A stretch of DNA of 19,276 nt from the NCBI GenBank assembly GCA_048939465.1, contig JBHLPL010000028.1, positions 1 through 19,276 on the forward strand. Reading direction: 5' to 3'. Under the pieces are notes generated by a model. That model was given only the letters and a program-made list of their open reading frames with translations. It had not been told where the DNA came from and did not search any database. The position numbers and the translations under genes were made by a program. Positions 2,651 through 19,276 of the stretch are shown here, in pieces; the first letter of the stretch is position 1; each line of letters starts with the position of its first letter. The DNA is from Promethearchaeota archaeon. Its GTDB lineage: Archaea; Asgardarchaeota; Odinarchaeia; Odinarchaeales; JBHLKK01.

Positions 2651-2721
2651 CAATGCCACAACTCATTAAACCACCAATTCTCCCTGTTTCCCTATCAAAC
2701 TATCTAGAAGTTGAGGTAAGA

Positions 2722-3252: not shown

Positions 3253-3265
3253 GGTTGATTACAGA

Positions 3266-4150: not shown

Positions 4151-5035
4151 ATGTCTTGGCTCAAAACATCGAAGACTTTCACTGACACTGGTTTTCTGGT
4201 AACAGAACCAAGTTACACCTATGCAATCGAGTTAGAGTACTACAAAGAGATGTGTGCAGGTTGCGGTATGTGTATAGTTGCTTGTCCAAAGGGAGCAATT
4301 AAGATAAAAGATCAAGAGAAACTGATTCAGAAGACGACTGGTATTAATCTCATTGATATAGATGAAGAAAAATGCGTCAAATGTGGTATTTGCGCAGCAA
4401 CGTGTATTTTCAACGCGCTTAAGCTTAGACATAGAGACAATCTCGCTGAAGAAGAATACAGGATACCCGCGACAGAACTCGGGGTTTATCCAAGTTTTCA
4501 AACCACGGCGAAGGTTGAGCTGGAGAAATGTACCTTTTGCAAACTATGTGAAAAGATGTGTCCGAGAAAAGCAATTACAGTAATTCACAAAGAGAAAGTG
4601 GATATAAATTCCATTCTATGCATTGGCTGTGGTTGGTGTGAGTGGATTTGTCCTACGTCCGCCATAACGACTAGAAAATCCCTTACAGGAAGCATCAAAA
4701 TAAACCTGGAAGTCTGCAAAACTGATTGTGACAAGTGCGCCTCTGTCTGTCCAGCTGATGCCATCTACTCCAAATCTATTGCAGAATCGAAATTTGGCAA
4801 GGTCAAAACCAATGTTATTGAGAAGAAGATTCTGAAACAAGAGACTGAAAAGACGGTTCCATTGAGTGAGTTCTGTGTTTTGTGCGGGGCCTGTAAACAG
4901 GTCTGTCCAGTAGAAGAATGTATTGAAATCGAGAGGAAAAAAATCTCCGTCCCCAAACTACGCTCGGCAAAACTGTGGTCAAGAGTACAGGAGAAACTCC
5001 ATAAGGCCACTAGGGAGGCTGGGAGAGCTGAGTAA
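4151..5035 (+). CDS. Polyferredoxin with six 4Fe-4S motifs, FwdF-like
   Basis: Motifs CAGCGMCIVACP, CVKCGICAATCI, CTFCKLCEKMCP, CIGCGWCEWICP, CKTDCDKCASVCP and CVLCGACKQVCP. The linker (...GVYPSFQTTAKVELEKC) resembles FwdF. TAAATG junction with hdrB. Confidence 0.85.
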   Translation: MSWLKTSKTFTDTGFLVTEPSYTYAIELEYYKEMCAGCGMCIVACPKGAIKIKDQEKLIQKTTGINLIDIDEEKCVKCGICAATCIFNALKLRHRDNLAEEEYRIPATELGVYPSFQTTAKVELEKCTFCKLCEKMCPRKAITVIHKEKVDINSILCIGCGWCEWICPTSAITTRKSLTGSIKINLEVCKTDCDKCASVCPADAIYSKSIAESKFGKVKTNVIEKKILKQETEKTVPLSEFCVLCGACKQVCPVEECIEIERKKISVPKLRSAKLWSRVQEKLHKATREAGRAE

Positions 5036-5534
5036 ACGGAAGATTCTGGAAGTAAACGCGAAATTTCGAGAGAAGATCGCCAAACATATTAAAGAGGAGC
5101 TATTGACTGTCTGCAATCAATGCGGAACTTGCACGGGTTCATGTCCCGCAGCAAGGTTCTCCGATTCATTCAATCCCCGGAAAATCATAAGAGGCATAGT
5201 TTTAGGGTCGGATGATGAATTAGTTCGAGGGAATCCAATATGGATGTGTACAACGTGCCATTTTTGCTCTGAGAGATGTCCTCAGGGAATTGACGTTTCT
5301 GAAGGCATTATTGCATTGAGAAATCTGGCTGCTCAAGAAGGTAATGTTCCGGAAGATATCAAGAACGAAGTGGTCAATCTACTATCGGCTGGCGTTACCG
5401 TTCTGCCATCTCCCATGATTGAGAAAAGAAGAGACAAGTTAGGACTGCCCAGCCTACCTCGAGTCGATCTCGAGCAAGTACGAACTTTGCTTAGGGTCGC
5501 CGGTCTAGACAGACATCCGAAGGGGGACAAGTAA
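5028..5534 (+). CDS. hdrC: Heterodisulfide reductase subunit C (copy 2); start uncertain (CTG 5028 favoured over TTG 4923 or TTG 5103)
   Basis: CNQCGTCTGSCP and IWMCTTCHFCSERCPQGID, plus ALRNLAAQEG. The TTG at 4923 would overlap the polyferredoxin by 113 nt. GGGAGG at 5013-5018 sits 9 nt before the in-frame CTG at 5028. Confidence 0.88.
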   Translation: MSKRKILEVNAKFREKIAKHIKEELLTVCNQCGTCTGSCPAARFSDSFNPRKIIRGIVLGSDDELVRGNPIWMCTTCHFCSERCPQGIDVSEGIIALRNLAAQEGNVPEDIKNEVVNLLSAGVTVLPSPMIEKRRDKLGLPSLPRVDLEQVRTLLRVAGLDRHPKGDK

Positions 5535-6434
5535 ATGCTCAACTATGCTTTCTTTCCGGGATGCCTAATCTCTCGAAGATACCCTCAGATTGAACTTGCC
5601 ACCAGGAAAGTAATGGACAGGTTTGGTGTCAAGCTGATAAATATGAATGGAGCTAGCTGCTGCCCAGATCCTATCGGAATTAAATCAATCAATTCAAAAG
5701 CGTGGATGCTAGTTTCTGCCCGAAACCTCTGTATTGCAGAAGAGATGAAAAAAGATATTATGACAGTATGCAACGGCTGTTTTCTAACCCTCAAAACCAC
5801 GAATTTCATACTTAAGAAGAATTCAGCACTGAGACAAGAAATTAATGGATTCTTGGCCGAAGTGGACAAAGAGTTCAAAGGAATCATAAGAGTCAAACAC
5901 ATGTCAGAGATTCTTCATAAAGACCTTGGAATTAAAAGAATCAAAGAACTCATCAAACACCGGCTAAGCAACCTTGATGTTGCCGTTCACCATGGCTGTC
6001 ACCTAGTTATGCCGAATGATATGTTGGCCATTGATAACCCCGAACGGCCATATATACTTGATGAGCTTGTTGAGGTTACGGGAGCCAAAAGCGCGCAATA
6101 TCTTCACAAGAACATGTGTTGTGGTTATGGTACCTCCACAAATAGCAAGGAGACTTCTCTGGAAATAACAAAACTGAAGCTGTTTCAAATGCAGCGTGCA
6201 AGCGTTGACTGCATAACTCTGATGTGCCCCTCTTGTTTCACCCAATTTGACATGGGACAGATACAAATCAAAAGGATCTTCAAAGAATCATTTGACATAC
6301 CAGTAATTCACTACTCACAACTTCTTGGACTGGCCTTAGGCTTCCTACCCAAAGAATTAGGTACACATCTGAATTTGGTCAAAGTTGAGCCTGTCCTCGA
6401 GAAATTAGGAATGCTTGCATCAAATGGAGGTTAG
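5535..6434 (+). CDS. hdrB: Heterodisulfide reductase subunit B (copy 2)
   Basis: FFPGC, SCCP, ARN, CNGC, HHGCH, CCGYG, CPSC and QFDMGQ. TAAATG junction with hdrC copy 2. Confidence 0.94.
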   Translation: MLNYAFFPGCLISRRYPQIELATRKVMDRFGVKLINMNGASCCPDPIGIKSINSKAWMLVSARNLCIAEEMKKDIMTVCNGCFLTLKTTNFILKKNSALRQEINGFLAEVDKEFKGIIRVKHMSEILHKDLGIKRIKELIKHRLSNLDVAVHHGCHLVMPNDMLAIDNPERPYILDELVEVTGAKSAQYLHKNMCCGYGTSTNSKETSLEITKLKLFQMQRASVDCITLMCPSCFTQFDMGQIQIKRIFKESFDIPVIHYSQLLGLALGFLPKELGTHLNLVKVEPVLEKLGMLASNGG

Positions 6435-6440
6435 GCATCA

Positions 6441-7763
6441 ATGAGCAAAAGAAAACCATCAGTATTAGTAATTGGGGGGGGAATAGCTGGAATTCATTCC
6501 GCCCTGAAGCTGGCGGATCTAGGTGTTGATGTCTACCTAGTTGAAAAAGAGGCAAGTCTAGGCGGAACTGCCGCCAAACTAGGTAAAGTATTTCCTACCG
6601 ATGATTGTGGTGTATGTGTTACTGCGTCTGCTAGCCAGTTCGCCACAAGAACTGGATACAGAAGATGTCTCTATCGCACGAATTTTACTGAACTATCAAA
6701 TTTGACTATTCTAACATTAAGTAGGATTCAGAACGTATTGAAAAAGGAAGGAGTCTTCAGTGTAAGAGTAAAACAAGATCCCAGATATGTTAACGAGAGG
6801 GATTGCATTGCATGTAACCTGTGTTCTGAAATATGTCCCGTGGAGGTAACTGATGAATATTGTCTGGGCTTGACGAAAAGAAAAGCAATTTACCTGCCAT
6901 TTATTCAAGCTATACCTTACACATATTTGGTTGACTCTGAAAGCTGTACCCGATGCAATAAATGCGTGGAAGAGTGTCCCACAAACGCTATTAATCTGGA
7001 CCAGCAAGCGAGAGAGTTTACGCTTGTAGTGGACAGAATCGTAGTTGCAACGGGATTCAAGGAAATAGATCCCAGTCACATCAGCGAGTATGGTTACGGC
7101 CTATATGAAAATGTAATTACCCAGATGCAGCTGGCAAGCTTTCTAGACCCGACAGGTCCGACTGAAGGGAAGATTGTTACACCAAAAACAGGGAAAGCCG
7201 CAAAGGATGTTCTCATGATTTTATGTGTAGATTCTCGAAATAAGTCGAACTGGTATTGCTCCAGAATCTGCTGTACCTATGCCATAAAACATGCGATCCT
7301 CCTCAAGCAATCTGGAGTAAATGTAACTATATCGTATATTGATGTTCGAACCATGGGACAATACGAAGAGTATCTTGAGAAAGCTAGGAAAGAAGGAGTC
7401 AGATTTGTGCATGGCCGTGTAAGCACAGTAGAAGAAGATCCCACAGATCACAGGCTTTTGGCACAACTCGAAGATGTCGATAATGCCAAGGTCCTCGAGA
7501 TTCCGTTTGATCTCGTTGTGTTGACTCCACGTCTTGCCCCCTCAGACGGAACCACTGAGATAATCAGAATCCTCGGTTTACCAACTGAAGCTGGAGGCTT
7601 TGTAAAACCATTATCGGATCAGTTTGACTCCACCAGGACTAGCCAGAAAGGCATATTTGTATGCGGTACAGCCCAACAACCGAAAGACATACCAGAATCC
7701 GTAACTGATGCTGGTACCGTCGCAATGAACATTCTTCATTCTTTAATGAAGAATAAGGCATAA
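6441..7763 (+). CDS. hdrA: Short HdrA-like flavoprotein (FAD domain + inserted 2x4Fe-4S domain; no N-terminal domain, no C-terminal ferredoxin); QmoA-like layout
   Basis: Begins at the Rossmann motif VIGGGIAG...VYLVEK. Contains VFPTDDCGVC, CIACNLCSEICP/CTRCNKCVEECP, VVATG, LCVDSR...YCSRICCTYAIK and GIFVCGTAQQPKDIPES. GGAGGT SD at 6426-6431. Confidence 0.9.
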   Translation: MSKRKPSVLVIGGGIAGIHSALKLADLGVDVYLVEKEASLGGTAAKLGKVFPTDDCGVCVTASASQFATRTGYRRCLYRTNFTELSNLTILTLSRIQNVLKKEGVFSVRVKQDPRYVNERDCIACNLCSEICPVEVTDEYCLGLTKRKAIYLPFIQAIPYTYLVDSESCTRCNKCVEECPTNAINLDQQAREFTLVVDRIVVATGFKEIDPSHISEYGYGLYENVITQMQLASFLDPTGPTEGKIVTPKTGKAAKDVLMILCVDSRNKSNWYCSRICCTYAIKHAILLKQSGVNVTISYIDVRTMGQYEEYLEKARKEGVRFVHGRVSTVEEDPTDHRLLAQLEDVDNAKVLEIPFDLVVLTPRLAPSDGTTEIIRILGLPTEAGGFVKPLSDQFDSTRTSQKGIFVCGTAQQPKDIPESVTDAGTVAMNILHSLMKNKA

Positions 7764-7767
7764 GGGG

Positions 7768-7797
7768 GAGAAGGAGAATGAGAAGGAGAATGAGAAG
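7768..7797 (+). repeat. 12-bp tandem repeat GAGAAGGAGAAT x2 plus partial third copy (GAGAAG)
   Basis: Read directly: 7768-7779, 7780-7791 and 7792-7797. It creates two in-frame SD+ATG units (ATG 7778 and ATG 7790). Confidence 0.9.
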
Positions 7798-9922
7798 AAG
7801 CAAAGTAGCACTGTTTTTGTGCACCTGTGGAAGAACTCTATCCAAGACCATAGATTTTGAGCAGTTAGTCAACTTCTCCTCAGAGCTTGAAGATGTAGAA
7901 GTAGTTAGAGTTCATGATACCCTATGTCTGGATAAGGGACTTGACTTCTTCACAAAGACCTTAAAGGATGAAAAAATAGGTGCTGCAGTCATCGCTGCGT
8001 GCTCCCCTCAAATCTATGAAGAGAGATTTCTAAAAGCAATTCATAAATCTAAGTTGGGCACCCTCATCGATTTTGCTAACATCCGAGAACAATCAGCCTG
8101 GGTACATAGCTCCACCCCTCAGAAAGCTACAAACAAAGCCAAAGTAATGATCGCATCATCTATTGAAAAGGTAAAAGGAATGAAAGAAGAAAAAGCTGAG
8201 AAGAGAAAGGTCAATAAAAGCGCACTGATTGTTGGGGGAGGAATTGCAGGCTTAAACGCCGCCCTAGATATTGCAGGACAAGGATTTAATGTAATCATAG
8301 TTGAAAAGACCTCCAGCATCGGTGGCTTATCCAGATTGTTTGAAGAGACGGAAATCAGAGATTTAGTTAGTCAGAGTATGGATGATGTAAAGAAAAACAG
8401 GAGAATTAGGATCTTCAGTAATTCCCTCGTGAAAGATGTGAAAGGCGTTCCTGGGGCTTATGATGTAGTCATTGCCGGAACTTCTGAATCTGAGAAAGAA
8501 CCGGTTGAATTGCAAGTAGGTGCAATACTCCTGGCAACTGGTTTGCGGGAATATGACCCATCTTCAATTCCGAAACTGAAATACGGGAAACACAAGAACA
8601 TCATAACAGGTCTCCAGGTATCTCAGATGATGCACCCGGATGGGGCAACTGGTGGCAAGATAATTGTCCCCTCGACAAAGAAAAAACCCAAACGAGTGAT
8701 GTTCATCCAGTGTGTTGGCTCGCGCGACTCCCGACACAAATGGTATTGCTCAAGCATATGCTGCAATTATGCCCTCAAGCATGCCAACAGACTCAACGAA
8801 CTGGGAATAGAAACTTTTGTTAATTATGTGGATATCCGCACACCCTATCTTGATGAGAAAAGATACATTGACGCTTTGAAGAAAGGGACTATATTCCTGA
8901 AAGGAGAGGTCAAAGGCATAAGAGAAAATGCCGATGAACTCACAGTTTCCATAGATGACACTTTGACAGGGGATAAACTTGATATAAACTGCGATATGGT
9001 TGTCCTAAACCCAGCTTTGGTCCCGACAGAAGAAGCAGAAACTCTTTCCAGACTTCTAGGTATTGGTCTCGATTCTGCTGGATTCTATCAAACTGTCTAT
9101 CCCAAGGTAATTACTGCCGAAAGCAAATCTAGAGGGTTGTTCATATGTGGCTCCGCTTTCAGCCCCATGGATATACAGCAGACCCTTGTGCATGCGCATG
9201 CGGCAGCTCTGGAAGCCGTAGAATTCCTTCGAAGAAGCACAATTGAACCTCGAAAGACTATACCAGAACTTGATGAGGAGCTCTGCGACGCCTGTAGGGC
9301 TTGTGAATCAATGTGTGGTTTTAACGCTGTAAAAGTTGAGGCAGTCGAAGCTGGACGAGAAGTCGCGAAACTCAGATTGGAGAACTGTGTTGGGTGTGGT
9401 GTTTGCGCAGCCGTTTGTCCAACAAAGGCAATCCAGCTCAGGAACTATGATCAAGAAACCCTTTTTGCCCAGATCGAAACCGTTGTGAAAACGGCCTCAG
9501 ATATTGATGCAAGCGAACCAGTAATCTTGGGACTATATTGTAATGAATGCGCATACTGTAGCGCTGATATGGCTGGGAGATTGCATAAAGAATACTCCTC
9601 AAATATATATCCCATTACTGTGCCGTGTGCTGGAAGAATTTCAGTTCTTGAGATTCTGAAAGCTCTTACCGAAGGCGCCGATGGGGTGTTTATTGCAGCT
9701 TGCCCAAGCAAAAGCTGCCACTACCCCCCTGCTACAGACAGTGCTCGATTAATGATTGATTTCACAAAAGAAATCTTAGATGCACTTGGCGTTGATGAGA
9801 GAAGAGTAGAGATCTTTAATATGGTCTCGTATGACCCAATCAAATTTGCTGAATCTGCCAATCTAATGGCTGAGAGAGTTACGAAACTTGGCCCGAATCC
9901 TGTGAAGAATGCAACAGAATGA
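7778..9922 (+). CDS. hdrA: HdrA-MvhD fusion (N-terminal domain + FAD domain + C-terminal 2x4Fe-4S + MvhD 2Fe-2S domain); QmoB-like layout; start 7778 or 7790
   Basis: FLCTCG, AACSP, NIREQSAWVH, IVGGGIAG, LLATG, QCVGSR...CSSICC, CDACRACESMCG/CVGCGVCAAVCP, then MvhD-type YCNECAY, VPCAGRI, GADGVFIAACPSKSCHY, LGPNPV. Lacks the FPTxDC loop and the inserted ferredoxin domain. Confidence 0.92.
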   Translation: MRRRMRRSKVALFLCTCGRTLSKTIDFEQLVNFSSELEDVEVVRVHDTLCLDKGLDFFTKTLKDEKIGAAVIAACSPQIYEERFLKAIHKSKLGTLIDFANIREQSAWVHSSTPQKATNKAKVMIASSIEKVKGMKEEKAEKRKVNKSALIVGGGIAGLNAALDIAGQGFNVIIVEKTSSIGGLSRLFEETEIRDLVSQSMDDVKKNRRIRIFSNSLVKDVKGVPGAYDVVIAGTSESEKEPVELQVGAILLATGLREYDPSSIPKLKYGKHKNIITGLQVSQMMHPDGATGGKIIVPSTKKKPKRVMFIQCVGSRDSRHKWYCSSICCNYALKHANRLNELGIETFVNYVDIRTPYLDEKRYIDALKKGTIFLKGEVKGIRENADELTVSIDDTLTGDKLDINCDMVVLNPALVPTEEAETLSRLLGIGLDSAGFYQTVYPKVITAESKSRGLFICGSAFSPMDIQQTLVHAHAAALEAVEFLRRSTIEPRKTIPELDEELCDACRACESMCGFNAVKVEAVEAGREVAKLRLENCVGCGVCAAVCPTKAIQLRNYDQETLFAQIETVVKTASDIDASEPVILGLYCNECAYCSADMAGRLHKEYSSNIYPITVPCAGRISVLEILKALTEGADGVFIAACPSKSCHYPPATDSARLMIDFTKEILDALGVDERRVEIFNMVSYDPIKFAESANLMAERVTKLGPNPVKNATE

Positions 9923-9935
9923 GGAAGGAAAGATA

Positions 9936-10418
9936 TTGCTTACAAAAAGGGAACACCTCGTCAGATTGCTGCAGAAACTGGCAATACGGCAGCCAAAGGC
10001 TCCCGTAGTTACGCCCGAAAAACTTGAAGGGTTTATTACCATACTAGTCAAATCCACAAGATGTACGTTATGCAATAAGTGTGTGGAAATATGTCCAGAG
10101 GATGCTCTTTCTCCCCTCAAAATCTTTGATCTTGCCTCAGTTCTGAAGTCTCCCTATCCAAAAGACTTGAGAGCGAAGAACAGATTGACACTATATGAAT
10201 TATTGCAGAAATTGGCACGTGAAACCCCAAAGGGTCAAATCATCGTGCCTGAGGGGCTAGAAGGGTTCGGGGACATAGAATTCCGCCCGGAGAAATGTAC
10301 TGCTTGCGACAAGTGCAAAGAAGTGTGTCCTGAAGATGCTATTGAGGTCCTACCACAATTCGACCTTCCAAGAGCATTGGAAAACTTGGCAAAACGCCCA
10401 AAGGAGGCCGAAGATTGA
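9936..10418 (+). CDS. Ferredoxin-like protein built from two ~78-aa repeats, each with one 4Fe-4S motif; start TTG 9936 (or ATG 9909)
   Basis: CTLCNKCVEICPEDAL and CTACDKCKEVCPEDAI are 234 nt apart. GAGGAAGG SD at 9921-9928 precedes the in-frame TTG at 9936. Confidence 0.85.
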   Translation: MLTKREHLVRLLQKLAIRQPKAPVVTPEKLEGFITILVKSTRCTLCNKCVEICPEDALSPLKIFDLASVLKSPYPKDLRAKNRLTLYELLQKLARETPKGQIIVPEGLEGFGDIEFRPEKCTACDKCKEVCPEDAIEVLPQFDLPRALENLAKRPKEAED

Positions 10419-12415
10419 ACAAAAAAGTCAATAGCAAAGGCTCAAACGAAAATGCAAGAATAGGAGTTTTTGTATGCCATTGCGGTTCCAATATTGCTGG
10501 TGTAATTGACGTAGGAGATGTGGCCAAATATTCGAAGAGTCTACCTCACGTAGCTTTCGCCAAAGACTACATATTCATGTGTTCCGAAAGTGGGCAAAAG
10601 CTAATCAAGGATTCCATAGGTAAGCACGGACTCAATCGAATTGTTGTAGCAGCTTGTTCACCAAAGCTACACGGACCAACATTTAAGCGTTGCATATCTG
10701 AAGCTGGGCTGAATCCGTATTTTCTTGAGATGCCAAACATTAGAGAGCAATGTAGCTGGGCACATATGAACGAATCCAAAAAGGCTACTGAGAAGGCTAA
10801 AACGTTGATTCGTGGAGTTGCCGAGAAAGCTGCTCTGCTTGAGCCTGTTGAGAGTATGAGGGCACCTGTCACAAAAGCGGCTTTAATCATTGGGGGAGGG
10901 ATTTCTGGAATTCAGGCGGCTTTAGATTTGGCTGATGCTGGCATCAGAGTATACTTGGTTGAAAGATCCCCCTCGATCGGCGGAAACATGGCTCGACTCG
11001 AGAAGACATTTCCTACTGACGACTGCGCCATGTGCATACTCTCTCCAAAAATGAATGATGTGAGAGCCCATCCTAGCATAGAGCTTCTTTCTTACAGCGA
11101 AGTGATAGATGTTTCAGGATACATAGGAAATTTCAACGTTAGTGTCCTCAAAAAGCCAAGATTTGTTGATGCCCTGAAATGTACAGGTTGTGGAGTATGT
11201 GCTGAAGTGTGTCCTGTAAAGGTACCAGCAGAATGGGAGCTGAGAATGGGTATGAGATCGGCCGCATATATCCCGTTCCCTCAATCGGTGCCGCTTACTC
11301 ATGTCATTGATCGAGAGAAATGCATAGATTGTGGCCTGTGCGAAGTATCATGTCCGTCAGGTGCTATTGATTTTGGTCAAATGCCAGAGGAGGTCAAACT
11401 GGAGGTAGGTGTGATAATTGTAGCAACTGGTTGGCAACAGTGGGATCCATCTCCAATGAGGGAATACGGGTACGGAATCTATCCAAACGTTATTACACAA
11501 TTACAACTTGCTCAAATGCTTGAATCTGTTGGTCCGACCAATGGCAAAATAGTTCGGGCTGATGGAAAGCCCGCAAAAAGAATAACAATGATACAGTGTG
11601 TAGGCTCCAGAGACGAGAAATACAACTCATATTGCTCGAGCGTATGTTGTATGGCAGCAATCAAGAATGCGCAGCTGGTAAAACTTGAGCACGTACGCGA
11701 TGCCGAAATAACAATATGCTACATAGATATTCGGGCTTATCGGAAGGACTTTGAGGAATACTACAGTCGTTCAAGAGAATACGGCATCGATTTCATACGC
11801 GGTAATGTTTCAAAAGTCTATGAAGACCCTAATACAGGCTTGATGAGAATCCAAGTATACGACACATTGCTGGACAGACTGATAGAACTTGAGTCAGATA
11901 TTGTTGTACTCTCTACGGCAACAATTCCTTCTGAAGGAACCTCAGAATTGGCCCAAAAGCTGGGAATAGACATTGGACCCGAAGGATTCTTGAAAGAGCT
12001 ACATCCTAAACTCAAACCGGTGAACAGCAAAATAGAAGGCATTTTCATATGTGGAGCGGCGCAAGGACCAAAAGACATTCCCGATTCGATAGCTCAGGCG
12101 AGCGCGGCGGCAGCCAGGGCAAATATACCCCTCGCCAAAGGATATGTCATAATAGACCTAATGGTGGCTGACGTGAACAAAGAGCTTTGTACGGCCTGCG
12201 CCATATGCGTGGATGTATGTCCTTTTGCAGCTTTGGAGATGAATGAAGAGGAGAATGTTGCTGAAGTCAATCCGCTGAAATGCAAGGGATGTGGGACTTG
12301 CTGCGGAGCCTGTCCTACAGGAGCTATCCAACTGGCCCACTATCGCGACGATCAAATCATCGCCCAGGTAAAGGGTATATTGGCATCATCGAAGGAAGTC
12401 TCGGAGGAAATCTAG
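10415..12415 (+). CDS. hdrA: Full-length heterodisulfide reductase subunit A
   Basis: GVFVCHCG, MCS, AACSP, NIREQCSW, IIGGGISG, KTFPTDDCAMCILSPKM, inserted ferredoxin (CTGCGVCAEVCP/CIDCGLCEVSCP), QCVGSR...CSSVCC and C-terminal CTACAICVDVCP/CKGCGTCCGACP. TTG start with AGGAGG SD. Confidence 0.96.
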   Translation: MNKKVNSKGSNENARIGVFVCHCGSNIAGVIDVGDVAKYSKSLPHVAFAKDYIFMCSESGQKLIKDSIGKHGLNRIVVAACSPKLHGPTFKRCISEAGLNPYFLEMPNIREQCSWAHMNESKKATEKAKTLIRGVAEKAALLEPVESMRAPVTKAALIIGGGISGIQAALDLADAGIRVYLVERSPSIGGNMARLEKTFPTDDCAMCILSPKMNDVRAHPSIELLSYSEVIDVSGYIGNFNVSVLKKPRFVDALKCTGCGVCAEVCPVKVPAEWELRMGMRSAAYIPFPQSVPLTHVIDREKCIDCGLCEVSCPSGAIDFGQMPEEVKLEVGVIIVATGWQQWDPSPMREYGYGIYPNVITQLQLAQMLESVGPTNGKIVRADGKPAKRITMIQCVGSRDEKYNSYCSSVCCMAAIKNAQLVKLEHVRDAEITICYIDIRAYRKDFEEYYSRSREYGIDFIRGNVSKVYEDPNTGLMRIQVYDTLLDRLIELESDIVVLSTATIPSEGTSELAQKLGIDIGPEGFLKELHPKLKPVNSKIEGIFICGAAQGPKDIPDSIAQASAAAARANIPLAKGYVIIDLMVADVNKELCTACAICVDVCPFAALEMNEEENVAEVNPLKCKGCGTCCGACPTGAIQLAHYRDDQIIAQVKGILASSKEVSEEI

Positions 12416-12844
12416 GTGAGTGAAGAAAAAGAGTTCGAACCGATAATCCTAGCTTTCTGCTGCAATGAGTGCTCATACGCTGCCGCGGATCTGGCTGGTA
12501 CAAGTCGTCTCCAATATCCGACAAACGTCCGAATAATTTTGATACCATGCACAGGAAGAATCGATCTGACCTATATTTTTGAGTCATTTGTCAACGGTGC
12601 TGATGGCGTTCTCGTAGAAGGATGCCTAAAGGACCAATGCCATTATGTCGACGGGAATTATAGAGCTGAAAGACGTGTCGAATTTGCAAAAAGGATACTC
12701 GACGAGATCGGTATAGGTAATGAAAGGCTGGAAATGCATTTCATCTCGGCTGGTATGCCTGTGAAGTTCGCCGAGGTAGCCAGGGAATTTGTCAGAAAAA
12801 TCAAAAAACTAGGTCCAAATCCCCTTAAATTGCGGAGCAGGTAA
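12416..12844 (+). CDS. mvhD: MvhD-type 2Fe-2S subunit (methyl-viologen-reducing hydrogenase delta)
   Basis: FCCNECSYAAAD, IPCTGRID, GADGVLVEGCLKDQCHYVDGN and LGPNP. GTG start abuts the hdrA TAG. GGAGG at 12403-12407. Confidence 0.95.
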   Translation: MSEEKEFEPIILAFCCNECSYAAADLAGTSRLQYPTNVRIILIPCTGRIDLTYIFESFVNGADGVLVEGCLKDQCHYVDGNYRAERRVEFAKRILDEIGIGNERLEMHFISAGMPVKFAEVAREFVRKIKKLGPNPLKLRSR

Positions 12845-13004
12845 CAATTCTAACAAGAAAAAAAAGCTAAGCGGTGTCATTTTCTTCATCGAATTAATTC
12901 TCAGTGCAGGTCAGTCTCAGCATCTGTACTTAGAGATAGGCTAGAAGCCTTAAGAATTTTTTGCTAATACGAACGGAGCGCTTCTGGGGCCTCTTCCGTC
13001 GGGC

Positions 13005-13114
13005 GCTTTTGCCAAACTACTGTTAATCTCCTTTTCTAAGATAGAGATAACATTAATTTATCAGAATGGTAATATTCCTAAGTGTTGATGAGGTCGATTC
13101 ACTTTGGCAAAAGC
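13005..13114. repeat. Perfect 12-bp inverted repeat GCTTTTGCCAAA (13005-13016) / TTTGGCAAAAGC (13103-13114) with an 86-bp spacer
   Basis: Read directly. The right arm contains the TTG start of ORF 13104. Confidence 0.75.
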
Positions 13115-13511
13115 TGAGAATCTCAATAAACTCATGAGAAAGATTGTATATGCCCTTTACTCCGACGAAGTCCACTCGTTCTACCGTGAATCTTCTGCAA
13201 ACCCTCAAATTAGATATTCTCCTACAGATCTCTTCGCCGACATACAAGATTCTAATGGACTTCCTGAGGCGGTGAACCATCTTATACACTTGGGTTTTTT
13301 GAAAGGTGAAAAGCTTCAAGATGGAAGAACGGTTTACTCGCTATCCGGCGAAAAGATGGAGCAGGTTAGGGATTTTTGGTTTTCTGAGTTGAGAAACATC
13401 ATGTCAGAGAAACTTCAGGTTGTTATAGCTAAGTTGTTTGCAAAGAAGATCGCACTCGGATGGGATGAATCTGAGGCTCAGGAAGCAGCTACCCCATCAT
13501 TTAAAGAGTAG
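13104..13511 (+). CDS. Hypothetical protein, possibly winged-helix fold
   Basis: 135-aa ORF with TTG start and GAGGTCGA SD. LPEAVNHLIHLGFLKGEKLQDGRTVYSLS resembles a recognition helix plus beta-wing. No family recognised. Confidence 0.6.
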   Translation: MAKAENLNKLMRKIVYALYSDEVHSFYRESSANPQIRYSPTDLFADIQDSNGLPEAVNHLIHLGFLKGEKLQDGRTVYSLSGEKMEQVRDFWFSELRNIMSEKLQVVIAKLFAKKIALGWDESEAQEAATPSFKE

Positions 13512-13593
13512 AGGTCCCCAAAACGTAGCAAATAGTTTTTATAGCCTTCTTTCCAAGAGTCTTTTGATGTACTCATTTTTGAGGCTGTAGGAC

Positions 13594-16479
13594 TTGAGGG
13601 AGAATACTTTCTCGTTGCTCTCCAAATCCCTTCAGCACGTATTGACAAAAGAAGGGTTTGTCGAAGCAACAGAACCTCAGCGAAGAGCGATACCACACAT
13701 CCTTAGTGGTGGGAATGTCCTAGTTATTGCTCCTACTGCCTCAGGAAAGACTGAAGCCGCAATTCTTCCTATATTCAGCAAGTTTTTGGAATCTGAAAAG
13801 GAGAAACTTGGAATTAGGATCTTGTATATAACGCCTTTACGAGCGCTGAATCGAGATATTTTCAGAAGAATCATCAAACTCGGCGGAGAATTAGGAATGC
13901 ATATAGAAGTCCGCCATGGTGATACTGAGGCCAGCAAAAGACGAAAACAGGCATTGATACCCCCCGATATGCTGATAACTACGCCCGAAACACTTCAAGC
14001 CATCCTGCCGGGGAAAAGAATGCAACAACATCTACGTAGCGTGAAATGGGTCATAGTTGATGAAATTCATGAAATAGTCACAGATAAACGAGGAGTCCAA
14101 CTCTCGATGGCCCTCGAAAGACTGAGAAAAGTAACTGACACGGATTTCCAGAGAATCGGCTTATCTGCCACAGTCGGAGATCCCCGCAAAGTAGCATCGT
14201 TCCTTGTCGGCGAGTCTGCAGCAATAGAAATCGTAAACATACCTCACTCAAAGAGGCTGACAATAGAGATTGAGAACGTGCGTCCTACCAAGGATGATGA
14301 AGAACTCGCAAACCAGCTTTTTACAAGCTTTCGAAGTGCCGCAAGAGTAAGAAGGATTGCTGAACTTGTTGAGAAGTATAATTCTGTACTGGTGTTTGTT
14401 AACACGCGTGAGAATGCTGAGGCAATATCCTCCAGATTACGGCTGCTTGAGCCGGTTTTCCGCTTTGGAGTGCACCATGGCTCACTGTCCCGTGAGGTCC
14501 GCGTTGAAGCTGAAAAAGAGTTTAAGAACGAGGAATTGAAATGCGTAGTCTGCACATCCTCGCTGGAGTTGGGGATTGACATCGGCGCTATTGATTTCGT
14601 CGTACAATACATGTCTCCTCGCCAAGTTTCTAGACTTATTCAAAGGGTTGGCCGCTCCGGTCATTCTATTGGAGAGACCTCTCATGGACTCGTTATTTGC
14701 ACAGATTTTGACGATGTATCTGAATCCCTTGCTCTCGCAAGTAGATCTGTAAGCGGACAACTGGAAGAGGTGTTACTGCACGAAAATGCGCTGGATGTTC
14801 TTTGTCACCAAATAGTGGGCACTATTCTCGACAATCGAAGGATTTCTCAAGAGGAAATGTTCAGGATTATTAAACGAGCCTACCCGTTCCGGAACTTGAG
14901 TTGGGAAAAGTTTCTTGGAATATTAGACTACATGAGAGGACTTAGGCTGATTTGGGTTGCTGATGACTACGTATCCTCACGAAGAGGAACACATCTTTAT
15001 TATTTCACACATCTCTCCATGATTCCAGACGTGAAGCGTTATGAAGTGCTAAACACGACCACTGGAAAGCCAGTCGGGACACTTGATGAGGAGTTCATCG
15101 TAGATCATGGTGAAGGAACCGTTTTCATTGTCCGAGGGAGACCTTGGAAGATTATTAGTGTTGATGAAGAGATAGTTCGGGTTGAAGAAGTGGACAATCC
15201 TACTGGAGCCATCCCCTCGTGGGAAGGTGAACTGATTCCGGTTCCTTTTGAAGTGGCCCAAGACGTAGGGAGGTTGCGTGAAGCCATAGCGAAAGCAATA
15301 GATGCTGGAAGAGATCCTTACGAGGCGCTTTTAGAGACCGACATCTTTCAAAGGCTAGAAGCTTTTTCTGAATGGGTTCCTCTAAAGGACGACCTAGAGG
15401 TTGTAATCAACACAATAATAAATCAACTCGAAAGCAAGATTGAGGTACCCACGCATAGAAAAATCGTTGTAGAACCAGTCATAATTGATGACGTGGGTTG
15501 GTTTGTTGTAATCCACTCTTGTTTTGGCAGCAAGGTAAATCAGACAATCGGGCATATTCTAACCTCATTGCTCTCTGCTCGTCTCGGAGCAAGTGTAGCT
15601 GTCAGAACAGATCCTTATCGAATAACAATCAAACTTCCAGATATTGTGAAAATTGATGTTTTCCGTGAAATATTGCTAAAAACAAAGCCAGAGCACATAA
15701 ATGAGATTCTGAGAATCATCCTGAAAGGAACTTCTCTTTATCACTGGAGACTCATGCATGTTGCAAAAAGGTTTGGTGCTATTGATAAGGATGTTGAGTT
15801 TAGAAGGATAGGTAGGAGATTACTAGGAGCCTATGAAGAAACGCCTATTGGCGTTGAAGCTATGAGAGAAATCATGGTAGAAAAGCTGGACATCAAACGA
15901 ACCAAGAATGTCTTTGACATGATCCAGAAGGGTAATATGGAGGTAGTCTCGGCGAAGAAGTGGGGTAAAGGTTCTCCAATGTCGATCCCTTCCCTACGAT
16001 GGTTCAGACCACATGGTCGTACTGCCCCTCCTCGCCCCGAAGCTCAAATCATTGAAGCTGTAAAGACTCGATTGATGGGCCGTCAGGTTAAACTCGTTTG
16101 CCTGTTTTGTGGAAACTGGCAAACGATCAGAACAGTTGGTACTTTAGCTGAGAATCCGAAGTGCAAAAACTGCGATTCCGGGATTCTGGCAGTAACTTAC
16201 CGTGGCGATTCAGATCTACCCAAGATTGTAAAACGATGGAAATCTGGTCAAGAACTAAGCAAGGAGGAAAAAAAGAGGATCAAAAGAGCTCAAAAATCTG
16301 CAAGTCTCGTGTTATCAATGGGAAAGAAGGCAGTCATTGCGTTGGCTGGACACGGTATCGGTCCTGCGACAGTTTCCAAGATTCTAAAAAGGAAACCTAC
16401 TCTGGATAAGAAGTTCTATAAGAGCATTTTAGAGGCTGAGAAAGAATATGCACGCACTCGAGTATTCTGGGATGATTAG
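13594..16479 (+). CDS. lhr: Lhr-family SF2 ATP-dependent helicase with C-terminal Zn finger
   Basis: APTASGKTE (motif I), YITPLRALNRD, VRHGDT, LITTPETL, IVDEIHE, IGLSAT, HHGSLS, TSSLELGIDIG, QRVGRSGH, WEGELIP, C-terminal CLFC...CKNC and EYARTRVFWD end. Confidence 0.93.
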   Translation: MRENTFSLLSKSLQHVLTKEGFVEATEPQRRAIPHILSGGNVLVIAPTASGKTEAAILPIFSKFLESEKEKLGIRILYITPLRALNRDIFRRIIKLGGELGMHIEVRHGDTEASKRRKQALIPPDMLITTPETLQAILPGKRMQQHLRSVKWVIVDEIHEIVTDKRGVQLSMALERLRKVTDTDFQRIGLSATVGDPRKVASFLVGESAAIEIVNIPHSKRLTIEIENVRPTKDDEELANQLFTSFRSAARVRRIAELVEKYNSVLVFVNTRENAEAISSRLRLLEPVFRFGVHHGSLSREVRVEAEKEFKNEELKCVVCTSSLELGIDIGAIDFVVQYMSPRQVSRLIQRVGRSGHSIGETSHGLVICTDFDDVSESLALASRSVSGQLEEVLLHENALDVLCHQIVGTILDNRRISQEEMFRIIKRAYPFRNLSWEKFLGILDYMRGLRLIWVADDYVSSRRGTHLYYFTHLSMIPDVKRYEVLNTTTGKPVGTLDEEFIVDHGEGTVFIVRGRPWKIISVDEEIVRVEEVDNPTGAIPSWEGELIPVPFEVAQDVGRLREAIAKAIDAGRDPYEALLETDIFQRLEAFSEWVPLKDDLEVVINTIINQLESKIEVPTHRKIVVEPVIIDDVGWFVVIHSCFGSKVNQTIGHILTSLLSARLGASVAVRTDPYRITIKLPDIVKIDVFREILLKTKPEHINEILRIILKGTSLYHWRLMHVAKRFGAIDKDVEFRRIGRRLLGAYEETPIGVEAMREIMVEKLDIKRTKNVFDMIQKGNMEVVSAKKWGKGSPMSIPSLRWFRPHGRTAPPRPEAQIIEAVKTRLMGRQVKLVCLFCGNWQTIRTVGTLAENPKCKNCDSGILAVTYRGDSDLPKIVKRWKSGQELSKEEKKRIKRAQKSASLVLSMGKKAVIALAGHGIGPATVSKILKRKPTLDKKFYKSILEAEKEYARTRVFWDD

Positions 16480-16542: not shown

Positions 16543-16557
16543 GGAAAGCTTATAAAA
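16543..16557 (+). promoter_or_regulatory. BRE/TATA promoter for the small-Cys-protein-lsrF-dehydrogenase unit
   Basis: GGAAAGC immediately followed by TTATAAAA (16550-16557), about 75 nt upstream of the GTG at 16632. Confidence 0.55.
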
Positions 16558-16631: not shown

Positions 16632-16844
16632 GTGTCAATACCAGGATACGTGGATTATAAGAGACGAGAATTCTGCAATGACATTCAGTGTCCAGTGCAG
16701 CTAAAGCTGAATTCACTGAAGGAAGGTTCTGAGGAATATCAGGAGGTCAGAAAAACTTGCGTAAATGCGTGCAAATTCACCACGTTTCAGTTTCACCATT
16801 GGTTGATAGATAAAGGTTATTTAATAGTTAAATCAAGAAAGTAG
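16632..16844 (+). CDS. Small Cys/His-rich hypothetical protein (70 aa), putative metal binder
   Basis: GTG start with GGGTGA SD. C-x4-C...C-x3-C...FHHWL pattern. Ends 9 nt before lsrF. Confidence 0.8.
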   Translation: MSIPGYVDYKRREFCNDIQCPVQLKLNSLKEGSEEYQEVRKTCVNACKFTTFQFHHWLIDKGYLIVKSRK

Positions 16845-16853
16845 AGAATTAAA

Positions 16854-17669
16854 ATGACGGGTGAGGGAAGAATGAGTTGGGGAATGAAAAATCGAATGTC
16901 GAGAATAATTAATCCGAAGACTGGCCATACCGTGATGCTTGCAGTAGATCATGGGTATTTTCAAGGACCTACCTCGGGGCTACAGATACCTCGGAAGACA
17001 ATTACTCCTCTTATACCCTATGCCGACACGCTGATGCTAACTAGAGGGATACTACGTACTTCTGTGGATGCAGAAAATCGAATACCAATAGTATTAAGAG
17101 TTTCAGGCGGAACAAGTATGGTCAGAAGAGAAGAGCTGTCCGATGAAGGGATTACTACTTCTATGGAGGAAGCCATTCGTCTTAATGTGTCTGGGGTTGC
17201 GCTCTCAATTTTCGTTGGGTCAGAACATGAGCGACAGACTCTGCTGAATCTTTCAAAGCTTGTAGATCGGGGTGAAGAATACGGCATTCCTGTTCTGGCT
17301 GTTACTGCTGTTGGGACAAAGATGGCAAGGGATGCCCGTTATCTGGGTCTCGCTTCACGTATAGCAGCTGAACTCGGGGCTCATATCGTCAAAACCTACT
17401 ACTGTGAAGATTTCGAGAAAGTTGTTGAAGGATGCCCTGTTCCTATAGTCATTGCGGGCGGAAAGAAAATACCAGAGCCGGATGCATTCAAGCTAGCTTA
17501 CGATGCTATTCAAGCTGGTGCGGTAGGTGTGGATATGGGCAGAAATATCTTCCAATCTGAGCATCCTGTGCAGGCCATAAAGGCTGTCCGTGCAATTGTT
17601 CAAGACGACTATACTGCAAAAGAGGCACTTGAACTATTTAATAAGGAGACAAGTGGAGTAGCAAAATAA
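16854..17669 (+). CDS. lsrF: LsrF-family class I aldolase-fold thiolase (3-hydroxy-5-phosphonooxypentane-2,4-dione thiolase); start 16854 or 16872
   Basis: WGMKNRMSRI, MLAVDHGYFQGPT, LRVSGG, PVLAVTAVG, AAELGAHIVKTYY (Schiff-base/catalytic Lys), IVIAGGKK and GVDMGRNIFQS. Confidence 0.92.
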   Translation: MTGEGRMSWGMKNRMSRIINPKTGHTVMLAVDHGYFQGPTSGLQIPRKTITPLIPYADTLMLTRGILRTSVDAENRIPIVLRVSGGTSMVRREELSDEGITTSMEEAIRLNVSGVALSIFVGSEHERQTLLNLSKLVDRGEEYGIPVLAVTAVGTKMARDARYLGLASRIAAELGAHIVKTYYCEDFEKVVEGCPVPIVIAGGKKIPEPDAFKLAYDAIQAGAVGVDMGRNIFQSEHPVQAIKAVRAIVQDDYTAKEALELFNKETSGVAK

Positions 17670-17734
17670 GAAACGCAAAATACGTAGCTATTGAAATTTC
17701 TTCTTTCTCTTTGCTTTGGTCAGAGGGTAGTACT

Positions 17735-18763
17735 ATGCGTGTGGCTATGTATTATAATAACAACGACGTAAGATTTGAGGAAATGCCAAAGCCAAAAATC
17801 AATCCAGGAGAAATCTTGGTTAAGGTAATGGCCAGTGGCATTTGCGGGAGCGACGTGATGGAATGGTATCGCATAAAGAAAGCTCCCCGTGTACTTGGTC
17901 ACGAAATCTCTGGCGAGATTGTTGAGATTGGTGACGGGGTGACAGGCTATCGGGTTGGGGACAGGGTTTTTGTGTCTCATCATGTACCGTGCAACACCTG
18001 CCGGTATTGCCTGTTTGGCCATCATACCGCTTGCGAGACCTTGCATACAACGAATTTCGATCCGGGGGGCAATTCAGAATATATCCGGGTACCACAAATC
18101 AACGTAGACCGCGGTGTTTTTGCTCTGCCAGAAGAGGTATCTTTTGAAGAGGCGGTGTTCGTAGAACCACTCGCCTGTGCTGTACGTGGCCAAAGACTGA
18201 TCGACGTGAAACCCGGTCAGACCGTCCTGGTCATTGGCTGTGGCATTTCTGGGCTACTGCATTTACAATTGGCACATGCACTCGGCGCAACACGTGTCGC
18301 TGCATCCTGCAAATATCCCTTTCAGCTTGAAGCCGCTAGGAAGTTCGGGGCGGACATTGTTATTGATGCAAAAGAAGATGTGTCGCATACGTTAAGAAAG
18401 GCTAATGACGGCAGACTTGCAGATGCAGCCATAGTATGTGCTGGATCCTCTTCGGCCGCAAGAACAGCCTTGGAATCCGTTGACAGGGGCGGTACTATAT
18501 TGTTCTTTGCGGTGCCACCACCAGATGTTGAATTTCCAATTAATCTAAATGAGATTTGGAGAAATGAGATTACCCTGAAAACCTCTTATGCAGCCAGTCC
18601 TTTAGACATTCTCCAGTCCATAGAGTTAATACGTTCCCGCAATGTACGGGTCCGTGAGATGGTTACGCATCGACTAAGCCTAGAAGAAGCAGGGCTGGGT
18701 TTCAAGCTCATGGCAAAAAAGACTGAGGGTGTAATCAAAGTAATACTCAAGCCGCATGGGTAA
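17735..18763 (+). CDS. Zn-dependent medium-chain dehydrogenase (sorbitol/threonine dehydrogenase-like)
   Basis: GICGSD, LGHE, structural-Zn CNTCRYC...C, EPLAC, GCGISG Rossmann motif and C-terminal KVIL. ATG at 17735 with GAGGGT SD is preferred over TTG 17711. Confidence 0.92.
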   Translation: MRVAMYYNNNDVRFEEMPKPKINPGEILVKVMASGICGSDVMEWYRIKKAPRVLGHEISGEIVEIGDGVTGYRVGDRVFVSHHVPCNTCRYCLFGHHTACETLHTTNFDPGGNSEYIRVPQINVDRGVFALPEEVSFEEAVFVEPLACAVRGQRLIDVKPGQTVLVIGCGISGLLHLQLAHALGATRVAASCKYPFQLEAARKFGADIVIDAKEDVSHTLRKANDGRLADAAIVCAGSSSAARTALESVDRGGTILFFAVPPPDVEFPINLNEIWRNEITLKTSYAASPLDILQSIELIRSRNVRVREMVTHRLSLEEAGLGFKLMAKKTEGVIKVILKPHG

Positions 18764-18765
18764 TC

Positions 18766-18873
18766 TTGAACTTGGTTCATAAAAGACTGGATGTTCCCCT
18801 GATAGCTGTAACCTACGAGGAATCACAGGAATCACTCAACAAGTACTTCCGTGAATATTTCCCCGAAAGCTGG
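18766..18873 (+). pseudogene. Duplicated internal fragment of the downstream DUF99 gene (LNLVHKRLDVPLIAVTYEESQESLNKYFREYFPESW)
   Basis: 18766-18842 is identical to 19200-19276. The continuation to 18873 reads in frame as DUF99-like sequence (KYFREYFP). The right boundary near the G7 run at 18872-18878 is inferred. Confidence 0.75.
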
Positions 18874-18935
18874 GGGGGAGTTAACATAGGAAGGAATACA
18901 AAGAGTGGTGTCCTTAAGATATAGGAGCTGAGACC

Positions 18936-19276
18936 TTGTCCGTTAGAGTTTCTAAGAAGGGCCTTCGTGCTCTTGGTATCTCCGAAAGCTTTCAAAAAGA
19001 GAAGAGTGAAAAATCGGTTTTAGCTGGTGTTGTAACACGGGCTGATCGAATAATAGACGGATTTGCTGCAACAACTATCACAGTGGGTGGATTTGACGCA
19101 ACTGATGGAGTGATTCGTATATTCGATATTATCGACAGAACAGACATTAATGTTCTAATGCTTAATGGTGTTGTAATTGCGTGGTTTAATGTTATCGATT
19201 TGAACTTGGTTCATAAAAGACTGGATGTTCCCCTGATAGCTGTAACCTACGAGGAATCACAGGAATCACTCAACAA
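18936..19276 (+). CDS. DUF99-family (endonuclease V-like) protein, 3'-truncated by the window edge; not in the ORF track
   Basis: Hand translation from TTG 18936 (AGGAGCTGA SD at 18923-18931): MSVRVSKKGLRALGISESFQKEKSEKSVLAGVVTRADRIIDGFAATTITVGGFDATDGVIRIFDIIDRTDINVLMLNGVVIAWFNVIDLNLVHKRLDVPLIAVTYEESQESLN. The LGIxESF, GVV.R.D..IDG, VGG.DAT, G..IAWFNVIDL and P.IAVTYEES motifs are typical of DUF99. Confidence 0.88.
   Translation, partial: MSVRVSKKGLRALGISESFQKEKSEKSVLAGVVTRADRIIDGFAATTITVGGFDATDGVIRIFDIIDRTDINVLMLNGVVIAWFNVIDLNLVHKRLDVPLIAVTYEESQESLN
19200..19276 (+). repeat. 77-nt exact direct repeat of 18766-18842 (offset 434 bp), reaching the window end
   Basis: Base-by-base identity over 77 nt. 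The base before each copy differs (C at 18765, T at 19199). Confidence 0.97.

Follow-up and report, generated by a model that had tools for sequence, protein, structure and literature searches.

What does an LsrF-type thiolase do in an archaeon, encoded beside a zinc-dependent dehydrogenase and away from the genes that process autoinducer-2 (AI-2)? The question is raised by contig JBHLPL010000028.1 of a Promethearchaeota archaeon, a complete 19.3-kb contig of 19,276 nucleotides (hereafter the window) from a 1.96-Mb assembly (G000) that is 91% complete. At 16632-18763 it carries three plus-strand open reading frames (ORFs), running in the same direction with gaps of 10-65 nt. They encode a small four-cysteine (Cys4) protein (16632-16844; 70 aa, GTG start); an LsrF-like class I enzyme of the DhnA fold, a predicted CoA-dependent thiolase by its match to NCBIfam model NF006081 and its active site (ORF 16854-17669); and a zinc-dependent medium-chain dehydrogenase/reductase (MDR) of the polyol/threonine-dehydrogenase kind, recognized by its ADH_N and ADH_zinc_N domains (ORF 17711-18763). 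An earlier note on this DNA had described the same unit, without other AI-2 genes in the window, and had suggested that the dehydrogenase replaces LsrG in a two-step, AI-2-independent route that degrades deoxypentulose phosphates. We give about even odds (a probability of roughly 0.5) to a related reading, in which the cassette is an AI-2-independent 'oxidize then thiolyse' route that would convert 5-deoxy- (or 5-methylthio-) ribulose-1-phosphate into dihydroxyacetone phosphate (DHAP) and an acyl-CoA. This reading draws on gene identities, a conserved active site, a dedicated gene pairing, the absence of AI-2 genes, a link with MtnA and an anti-link with class II aldolases; the substrate, direction and products that it assigns to the cassette are predicted.

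The LsrF-like protein probably starts at ATG 16872 (M7 of the ORF), which gives 265 aa, the same as its database twin, and its nearest database proteins are labelled Promethearchaeota (Asgard archaea). It falls within the DeoC/LacD Pfam superfamily and scores 414.9 bits (417 in the genome search) against NF006081, the model of 3-hydroxy-5-phosphonooxypentane-2,4-dione (P-HPD) thiolase, whose cut-off is 297. Among proteins of known structure, phmmer matches it to E. coli LsrF (3GKF/3GLC/4P2V) with an E value of 2e-92 and 312 bits, against 141 bits for MJ0400, a 2-amino-3,7-dideoxy-D-threo-hept-6-ulosonate (ADH) synthase, and 76 bits for archaeal class I fructose-1,6-bisphosphate (FBP) aldolase; by tblastn it shares 54-57% identity with the LsrFs of lsr operons. 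In E. coli LsrF, Lys203 forms the Schiff base, Asp57 is the general base, His58, Gly226, Gly227, Gly253 and Arg254 form the phosphate site, and Asp251, which lies 2.9 Å from the lysine, is replaced by Ala in ADH synthase and in the FBP aldolase of T. tenax (PMC2728841, Diaz 2009). On alignment, D57, H58, K203, G226, G227, D251, G253 and R254 correspond to D32, H33, K180, G202, G203, D227, G229 and R230 of the window protein, and all eight are invariant among 86 homologues.

Relatives at 72-80% identity number in the thousands and come from Asgard archaea, Thermoplasmata, Nitrososphaerota, KSB1, Aminicenantes, Nitrospinota and other groups. In a quick maximum-likelihood tree, rooted at the midpoint and including four outside sequences, the 91 dehydrogenase-linked LsrFs form a single clade (SH-aLRT 99). 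Outside it stand the LsrF of an Enterobacter lsr operon and three LsrFs from other contexts: Lacticaseibacillus, with lsrK and an ABC transporter; Parabacteroides, with DhaK; and Sagittula, with an FGGY kinase and a GlpD-like dehydrogenase. Judged by its sequence and active site, the window protein is a member of the LsrF family, within a separate subfamily that is linked to dehydrogenases and stands outside the Lsr system. LsrF is a thiolase that cleaves P-HPD in a CoA-dependent manner, and this chemistry is predicted to have been kept.

Two of the outside sequences merit a remark of their own. The lsrF annotated on the Sagittula plasmid (L111) shares its operon with a sugar ABC transporter, the GlpD-like dehydrogenase, the FGGY kinase and a long gene resembling class II aldolases, and that on the Parabacteroides plasmid (L109) lies downstream of DhaK/DAK2 genes. 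Because both annotated genes lie outside Lsr systems, several routes other than AI-2 degradation may feed LsrF-type thiolases.

A Pfam and NCBIfam scan of all window proteins revealed no lsr genes and no ABC transporter. A search of the genome detected neither an ABM-domain (LsrG-type) gene nor LuxS; its single FGGY kinase is XylB-like (245 bits) and reaches 144 bits on the LsrK model, the cut-off of which is 528; and there is no second DhnA-family gene besides the LsrF-like one. Within the 91% completeness of the assembly, then, a full lsr pathway elsewhere, which the earlier note had named as the finding contrary to its proposal, was not encountered, and the AI-2-independent character that it had assigned to the module agrees with the absence of lsrK, lsrG, luxS and lsr transporter genes from window and genome alike. 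It is correspondingly hard to credit that the cassette scavenges environmental AI-2 (4,5-dihydroxy-2,3-pentanedione) as enteric bacteria do, by way of a kinase and an isomerase that have escaped recognition. The family name and model score would suggest as much, and homologues in ammonia-oxidizing archaea have been interpreted as quorum-sensing genes (PMC11442133). Such a role is extremely improbable, given that lsrR and lsrACDB are missing along with the genes just named, that canonical operons look quite different, that the pair-linked LsrFs form a clade of their own, and that their constant partner is a dehydrogenase, an activity for which AI-2 processing has no need.

That partnership is widespread. 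Across 80 species-representative loci from many phyla, a homologue of the dehydrogenase directly adjoins the LsrF-like gene in about 70, in either gene order, and the two are adjacent on contigs of Asgard archaea, Thermoplasmata, Nitrososphaerota, Abyssubacteria and KSB1. The same story is told by 151 Asgard genomes, sampled evenly and searched with the LsrF model and with a dehydrogenase-clade profile (E<=1e-90): LsrF occurs in 37 genomes, in a patchy and family-specific manner, and the dehydrogenase in 37 with the same family pattern, so that 34 genomes hold both genes, three LsrF only, three the dehydrogenase only and 111 neither. The six single-gene genomes are all of one family, with several of the genes concerned at contig ends. 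Co-occurrence of this dehydrogenase clade with lsrF, which the earlier note had put forward as a check, is thus borne out both by adjacency and by distribution. Since the unit recurs in many lineages, the arrangement is far beyond chance, and the dehydrogenase is a dedicated partner of the pair-linked LsrF clade. No third gene is universally linked to the pair in the 80 loci; recurrent neighbours amount to lineage-specific synteny (argBCDFG, aminotransferases, HPPK, NAD kinase and RecN).

These distributions also bear on whether the LsrF-like protein might be an ordinary aldolase or transaldolase of the DhnA type that works without CoA, producing for example a 6-deoxy-5-keto-hexose phosphate such as 6-deoxy-5-ketofructose 1-phosphate (DKFP) for the synthesis of archaeal aromatic amino acids, or acting as an FBP aldolase, with the dehydrogenase adjusting the aldehyde or ketone partner. 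In keeping with such a role, the gene is the sole one of the DhnA family detected in the genome, the models of ADH synthase and archaeal class I FBP aldolase also match it (below their cut-offs), and several bacterial lineages hold the pair amid amino-acid biosynthesis genes (argBCDFG, aminotransferases). We nonetheless regard this alternative as distinctly unlikely: the match to E. coli LsrF far exceeds that to the MJ0400 enzyme, the LsrF-specific Asp251 is invariant, and a presence in 37 of 151 Asgard genomes is ill-suited to a core enzyme of glycolysis or of the aromatic pathway.

The dehydrogenase probably begins at ATG 17735, giving 342 aa as in its relatives. Beyond its two Pfam domains, it falls below every NCBIfam equivalog cut-off: the best families, namely threonine dehydrogenase, scyllo-inosose dehydrogenase and galactitol-1-phosphate dehydrogenase, all remain far from theirs, with the L-threonine 3-dehydrogenase models TIGR00692 and NF003808 giving 178.8 bits against 458 and 178.6 against 380, respectively. 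Its best relatives of known structure are a ketose reductase and a sorbitol dehydrogenase. Conserved throughout the clade are the catalytic zinc ligands C45/H64/E65/E152, the structural cysteines C94/C97/C100/C108 (TTG numbering, here and below) and the GCGISG form of the GxGxxG motif. The clade comprises two sub-clades, one 51-68% identical to the window protein and the other, from Nitrososphaerota, 33-40% identical and always encoded upstream of the LsrF-like gene. Basic residues common to both (R85, H90, H91, R159, H320 and K343) are candidate phosphate binders. Where Rossmann strand beta-2 ends, 70 of the 75 clade members carry the Asp that determines NAD use, which fits catabolic oxidation; the reverse, biosynthetic direction that the earlier note had also entertained finds no support.

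How the two enzymes could act in series follows from simple chemistry. P-HPD, or 3-hydroxy-2,4-pentanedione-5-phosphate (CH3-CO-CHOH-CO-CH2OP), is obtained by oxidation of the C4 hydroxyl of 1-deoxy-D-xylulose 5-phosphate (DXP) or, equally, of 5-deoxy-D-ribulose-1-phosphate. MDR enzymes of the polyol/threonine type act on the penultimate carbinol; C4 of 5-deoxyribulose-1-phosphate is such a carbinol, and this substrate therefore fits an MDR dehydrogenase. In the scheme that we propose, 5'-deoxyadenosine, the by-product that radical S-adenosylmethionine (SAM) enzymes generate, would be converted by a 5'-methylthioadenosine (MTA)/5'-deoxyadenosine phosphorylase and an MtnA-type isomerase into 5-deoxy-D-ribulose-1-phosphate, and the 5-methylthio analogue, derived from MTA, might also serve as a substrate. 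The zinc dehydrogenase would oxidize the C4 hydroxyl of this ketopentose 1-phosphate, which has a DHAP-like head, to a 1,3-diketone, P-HPD, the known substrate of LsrF. Lys180 of the LsrF-like enzyme would then form a Schiff base with the DHAP end while CoA attacked the distal carbonyl, and DHAP and acetyl-CoA (or methylthioacetyl-CoA) would be released. In effect, the cassette would take over the cleavage that a class II aldolase performs in the DHAP shunt, with NADH and a thioester taking the place of a free aldehyde.

The same diketone could arise from other sugars, and it was to DXP, or its ribulose epimer, that the earlier note had turned: the dehydrogenase would oxidize C4 of DXP or 1-deoxyribulose-5-phosphate to P-HPD, LsrF would cleave it, and the reverse reactions would build DXP from DHAP and acetyl-CoA. 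The core of that idea, an oxidation replacing LsrG in a two-step route, is chemically sound and fits the conserved LsrF active site; its choice of substrate fares less well. Because the genome shows neither a DXP synthase N-domain nor a DXP reductoisomerase, DXP is an unlikely substrate, and the comparative data point instead to 5-deoxy-D-ribulose-1-phosphate. The pair is common in Archaea, where DXP metabolism is not known; to our knowledge, most of the archaeal carriers, which use the mevalonate pathway, have no use for DXP. Its distribution follows MtnA and runs counter to class II aldolases, with no such relation to genes of the methylerythritol phosphate pathway. In favour of DXP, beyond the chemistry, one may cite the XylB-like FGGY kinase of the genome, given that the xylulokinase of E. 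coli phosphorylates 1-deoxyxylulose, and the LsrF-like gene of the Sagittula plasmid, which has an FGGY kinase and a GlpD-like dehydrogenase as neighbours. The kinase of the window genome, however, lies on another contig beside a RuBisCO gene, and all told a DXP route seems very unlikely.

The contig in question (C74; L002 760-3553) places the FGGY kinase tail to head with a gene for a RuBisCO large subunit that scores 458 bits, against a form III cut-off of 497. The DXP_synthase_N model, for its part, finds transketolase-like genes in 13 of 14 control genomes and nothing in this assembly, so that a conventional transketolase may be missing from it, within its 91% completeness.

The upstream steps assumed in our scheme have precedents. 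A phosphorylase for MTA and 5'-deoxyadenosine, together with MtnA, yields 5-deoxy-D-ribulose-1-phosphate from 5'-deoxyadenosine (PMC6079011, Beaudoin 2018; PMC10986504, North and co-workers), and the DHAP shunt, or 5-deoxyribose disposal pathway, comprises MtnP or MtnK/DrdK, MtnA/DrdI and the class II aldolase Ald2/DrdA (PMC6079011, PMC10986504). Among 55 pair-bearing genomes from many phyla, 50 hold a gene of the IF-2B/MtnA type, and 36 hold no gene of the class II aldolase family, that is, neither MtnB nor Ald2/DrdA; for comparison, genomes without a class II aldolase make up 26 of the 151 Asgard genomes and 3 of 14 control genomes. In Omnitrophota, LsrF occurs in 45 of 151 genomes, and all of these 45 also have IF-2B. 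When the 124 IF-2B-positive genomes of this group are divided by the presence of LsrF, a class II aldolase is found in 9 and missing from 36 of those with LsrF, and is found in 74 and missing from 5 of those without; in the latter, the aldolase gene often adjoins the IF-2B gene.

Direct linkage is seen in two Omnitrophota operons (L103 and L104), in which overlapping genes encode an MtnA-like isomerase, a class II aldolase, an aldehyde dehydrogenase, LsrF and the dehydrogenase. The isomerase scores 243 bits on the subfamily model of methylthioribose-1-phosphate isomerase, radical-SAM genes and an acyl-CoA ligase lie beside both operons, and the L104 operon alone begins with a gene of the PNP family, which is cut by the contig end. 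Closer to the window, a closed 1.4-Mb genome of the same order (G001) contains the small gene, LsrF and the dehydrogenase in a row, MTAP and two IF-2B genes, with no class II aldolase. In the window genome itself, a gene of contig C77 matches the MTAP model at 281 bits, with a cut-off of 274.85; MTAP also occurs in six close relatives, and a second, longer copy of IF-2B is present in genomes of its genus and order.

Several observations count against this proposal. The anti-association of LsrF and aldolase in Omnitrophota (odds ratio 0.017, Fisher p 2e-17) ignores kinship among the genomes, and its significance is overstated. The one IF-2B gene of the window genome, as represented in the 91% complete assembly, resembles ribose-1,5-bisphosphate (R15P) isomerase and sits beside AMP phosphorylase. 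Neither in the window nor at the 80 closest loci does the pair have an mtnP, mtnA or class II aldolase gene within 10 kb, the neighbours at those loci being housekeeping genes (arginine biosynthesis, aminotransferases, NAD kinase). The window genome has a separate class II aldolase elsewhere, three pair-bearing genomes also carry adjacent mtnA and aldolase genes, and the two Omnitrophota operons hold both aldolase and pair. Finally, the window dehydrogenase and its nearest sister (L003) show Cys200, followed by Lys, at the position of the NAD-type Asp, and the L010/L012 lineage shows Asn; with Cys in place of Asp, cofactor preference may have shifted in the window lineage.

We therefore do not adopt the view that the pair strictly replaces the class II aldolase, as the two are found together in the window genome, in the Asgard families f9 and f19 and in the two Omnitrophota operons. 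Their co-occurrence in some genomes and in both operons means that replacement is not the whole story: the pair may handle one of the two by-product sugars, or may add an energy-conserving alternative. A wider survey of about 90 loci, covering 10 kb around the pair, retrieved no homologues of mtnP, IF-2B, class II aldolase, AMP phosphorylase or FGGY kinase, and a single RuBisCO homologue (L090).

The RuBisCO homologue leads to a further candidate, in which the substrate would be a hydroxylated ketopentose 1-phosphate (ribulose-1-phosphate or xylulose-1-phosphate) from the catabolism of nucleosides or pentose bisphosphates, and the products DHAP and glycolyl-CoA. MDR enzymes of the polyol type oxidize the carbinol next to CH2OH, as this substrate would require. 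The window genome offers the AMP phosphorylase next to the R15P-isomerase-like gene, a RuBisCO close to form III, and a class II aldolase whose best NCBIfam match, below cut-off, is ribulose-1-phosphate aldolase; in L090 the RuBisCO large-subunit homologue begins 5 nt downstream of the dehydrogenase gene; and Asgard family f9 has the pair in an island that also holds an FGGY kinase, a short-chain dehydrogenase/reductase and a class II aldolase. Most of the bacterial carriers, however, have no known pentose-bisphosphate pathway and yet show the MtnA link, the two Omnitrophota operons carry an MtnA-type isomerase and a PNP-family gene rather than AMP phosphorylase, and LsrF is known only with a substrate that bears an acetyl group. 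We judge the hydroxylated substrate unlikely and retain 5-deoxy- or 5-methylthio-ribulose-1-phosphate as the preferred one. As to the loci themselves, AMP phosphorylase and the R15P-isomerase-like gene adjoin each other on contig C137 of the window assembly, and the L090 locus, from a metagenome-assembled genome of Methanobacteriota (9677-14661), comprises genes for the small protein, LsrF, an inserted AAA_14/DUF4143 ATPase, the dehydrogenase and the RuBisCO homologue.

The third gene of the cassette encodes a protein without a Pfam or NCBIfam family. Its GTG start at 16632 directly follows an in-frame TGA and a Shine-Dalgarno-like GGTGA motif, and the resulting N-terminus, MSIPGYVDY, agrees with those of homologues. 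The latter form about 280 database clusters at 60-84% identity, from Archaea and Bacteria, none with a Pfam domain; across 40 sequences, C15, C20, C43, C47, H55, H56 and W57 are invariant (CX4C...CX3C and FHHW). The predicted structure is mostly helical, with a pLDDT of 92.4, and a comparison of this model with the PDB produced no Foldseek match at E<=0.001 and a best Z of 2.9 from VIA-align over 48,161 chains. A predicted complex with the LsrF-like protein scored 0.00, below the mark and without controls, and counts neither for nor against binding. The gene lies directly upstream of the LsrF-like gene in 7 of 8 lineages looked at, including Spirochaetes and Omnitrophota (the window, L003, L010/L012/L101, L015, L090, L105 and L107), while only a minority of pair loci possess it. 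The protein is a real third member of the cassette, kept by selection, in the window lineage, and it may serve as a regulator or as an accessory that binds metal. A closed Bathyarchaeia genome (L106 5001-8714) has the small gene away from LsrF, upstream of nrdR, nrdD and the radical-SAM activase gene nrdG.

More broadly, and with somewhat less confidence than in the route itself, we tentatively suggest that the LsrF-dehydrogenase pair, joined in some lineages by the Cys4 protein, could be a widespread, undescribed oxidative-thiolytic branch of the salvage of SAM by-products. In many anaerobic bacteria, as well as in archaea (Asgard archaea, Thermoplasmata and Nitrososphaerota, the ammonia oxidizers included), such a branch would stand in for the DHAP shunt's class II aldolase and would retain the carbon of the deoxy sugar as DHAP and acetyl-CoA; the AI-2 enzyme of enteric bacteria might then be a later offshoot of an older housekeeping chemistry. 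Our literature search found no paper that links LsrF to 5-deoxyribose, 5'-deoxyadenosine or the DHAP shunt, or that proposes this pathway. That the cassette exists and is widely conserved is established; its database label of quorum-sensing machinery is wrong, with thousands of genomes annotating the LsrF-like gene as an AI-2 enzyme. If a housekeeping route for the sugar of 5'-deoxyadenosine and MTA is true, a common annotation would be put right, many genomes devoid of a class II aldolase would gain the missing step that follows MtnA, LsrF would gain a second physiological source of its substrate, and an evolutionary origin would be suggested for the enteric AI-2 degradation enzyme.

The remainder of the window gives the cassette its setting. 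The 152-nt gap upstream of the small gene contains a candidate archaeal TATA-like box, TTATAAAA (16550-16557, plus strand), read from the sequence; at 75 nt from the start codon it is rather far for an archaeal promoter. Scans for sigma-70 promoters and intrinsic terminators relied on models of the bacterial type and are uninformative for an archaeon. Other genes encode the C-terminus of UvrB, an AAA protein resembling a kinase, an AlaX-like protein, a cluster of Hdr and MvhD proteins, an Lhr helicase and endonuclease dU. The cluster, at 2653-12844, consists of ten co-directional genes resembling heterodisulfide reductase: two pairs of HdrC-like and HdrB-like (CCG domain) proteins, a polyferredoxin, three HdrA-like flavoproteins (one of them with a fused MvhD domain), a ferredoxin and a free-standing MvhD. 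All of their scores lie below the methanogen HdrA cut-offs, and the whole forms a large module of the electron-bifurcation type in an Asgard genome.

Close relatives, whose LsrF is 90% identical, depart from this layout in several ways. They have nothing of the Hdr cluster that, in the window, separates the AlaX-like gene from a 135-aa ORF. This ORF, at 13104-13511 in the window, upstream of the Lhr helicase gene, has no family match but is kept in the relatives in position and length (L003 3937-4344). Between the dehydrogenase and endonuclease dU, the relatives carry about 3.9 kb (L003 9892-13865) that is absent from the window (18763-18936) and holds an ORF of 59 aa and genes for a 593-aa thiamine-diphosphate enzyme fused to rubredoxin and for an ATPase resembling TIP49/RuvB. 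Their UvrB gene (L003 1-2306) encodes 1358 aa that include an intein and a LAGLIDADG domain; the window begins inside the UvrB C-terminus.

The cassette can be set beside four known systems. The canonical lsr operon, as found on an Enterobacter plasmid, is organized as lsrK-lsrR / lsrACDBFG and is quite unlike the window cassette. The enteric LsrF and the window protein share the family model, the fold family, the Schiff-base lysine, the general-base aspartate, Asp251 and the phosphate-binding residues, and would also share the products, DHAP and acetyl-CoA. They differ in that the window protein is without the N-terminal ~26 residues of the enteric protein, is without a context of lsrK, lsrG, lsrR and lsrACDB, and belongs to a separate clade, and in that its diketone would be supplied by a dehydrogenase rather than by the LsrG isomerase. 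With ADH synthases of the MJ0400 type and archaeal class I FBP aldolases, the window protein has in common the DhnA superfamily, the decameric TIM-barrel fold family, and the lysine and general-base aspartate; its scores on their NCBIfam models are below cut-off, and those enzymes have Ala where LsrF and the window protein have Asp251.

With the DHAP shunt, the proposed route would share its input (5-deoxy- or 5-methylthio-ribulose-1-phosphate), DHAP as a product and the upstream genes, and two Omnitrophota genomes combine the genes of both in an operon. The shunt relies on a metal-dependent aldol cleavage that yields acetaldehyde or methylthioacetaldehyde, whereas oxidation and CoA thiolysis would here yield an acyl-CoA and NADH, and the cleaving enzyme of the cassette is a class I Schiff-base homologue of LsrF, not a class II aldolase. 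The closest parallel in logic is the pair formed by threonine dehydrogenase and 2-amino-3-ketobutyrate CoA ligase (Tdh/Kbl), in which an MDR enzyme oxidizes a CH3-CHOH- group to a beta-dicarbonyl and a second enzyme cleaves the product with CoA to acetyl-CoA. Threonine dehydrogenase models indeed top the NCBIfam list of the window dehydrogenase, yet remain far from their cut-offs; and where Tdh/Kbl employs a pyridoxal phosphate enzyme for cleavage, the cassette would employ a Schiff-base TIM barrel, acting on a sugar phosphate.

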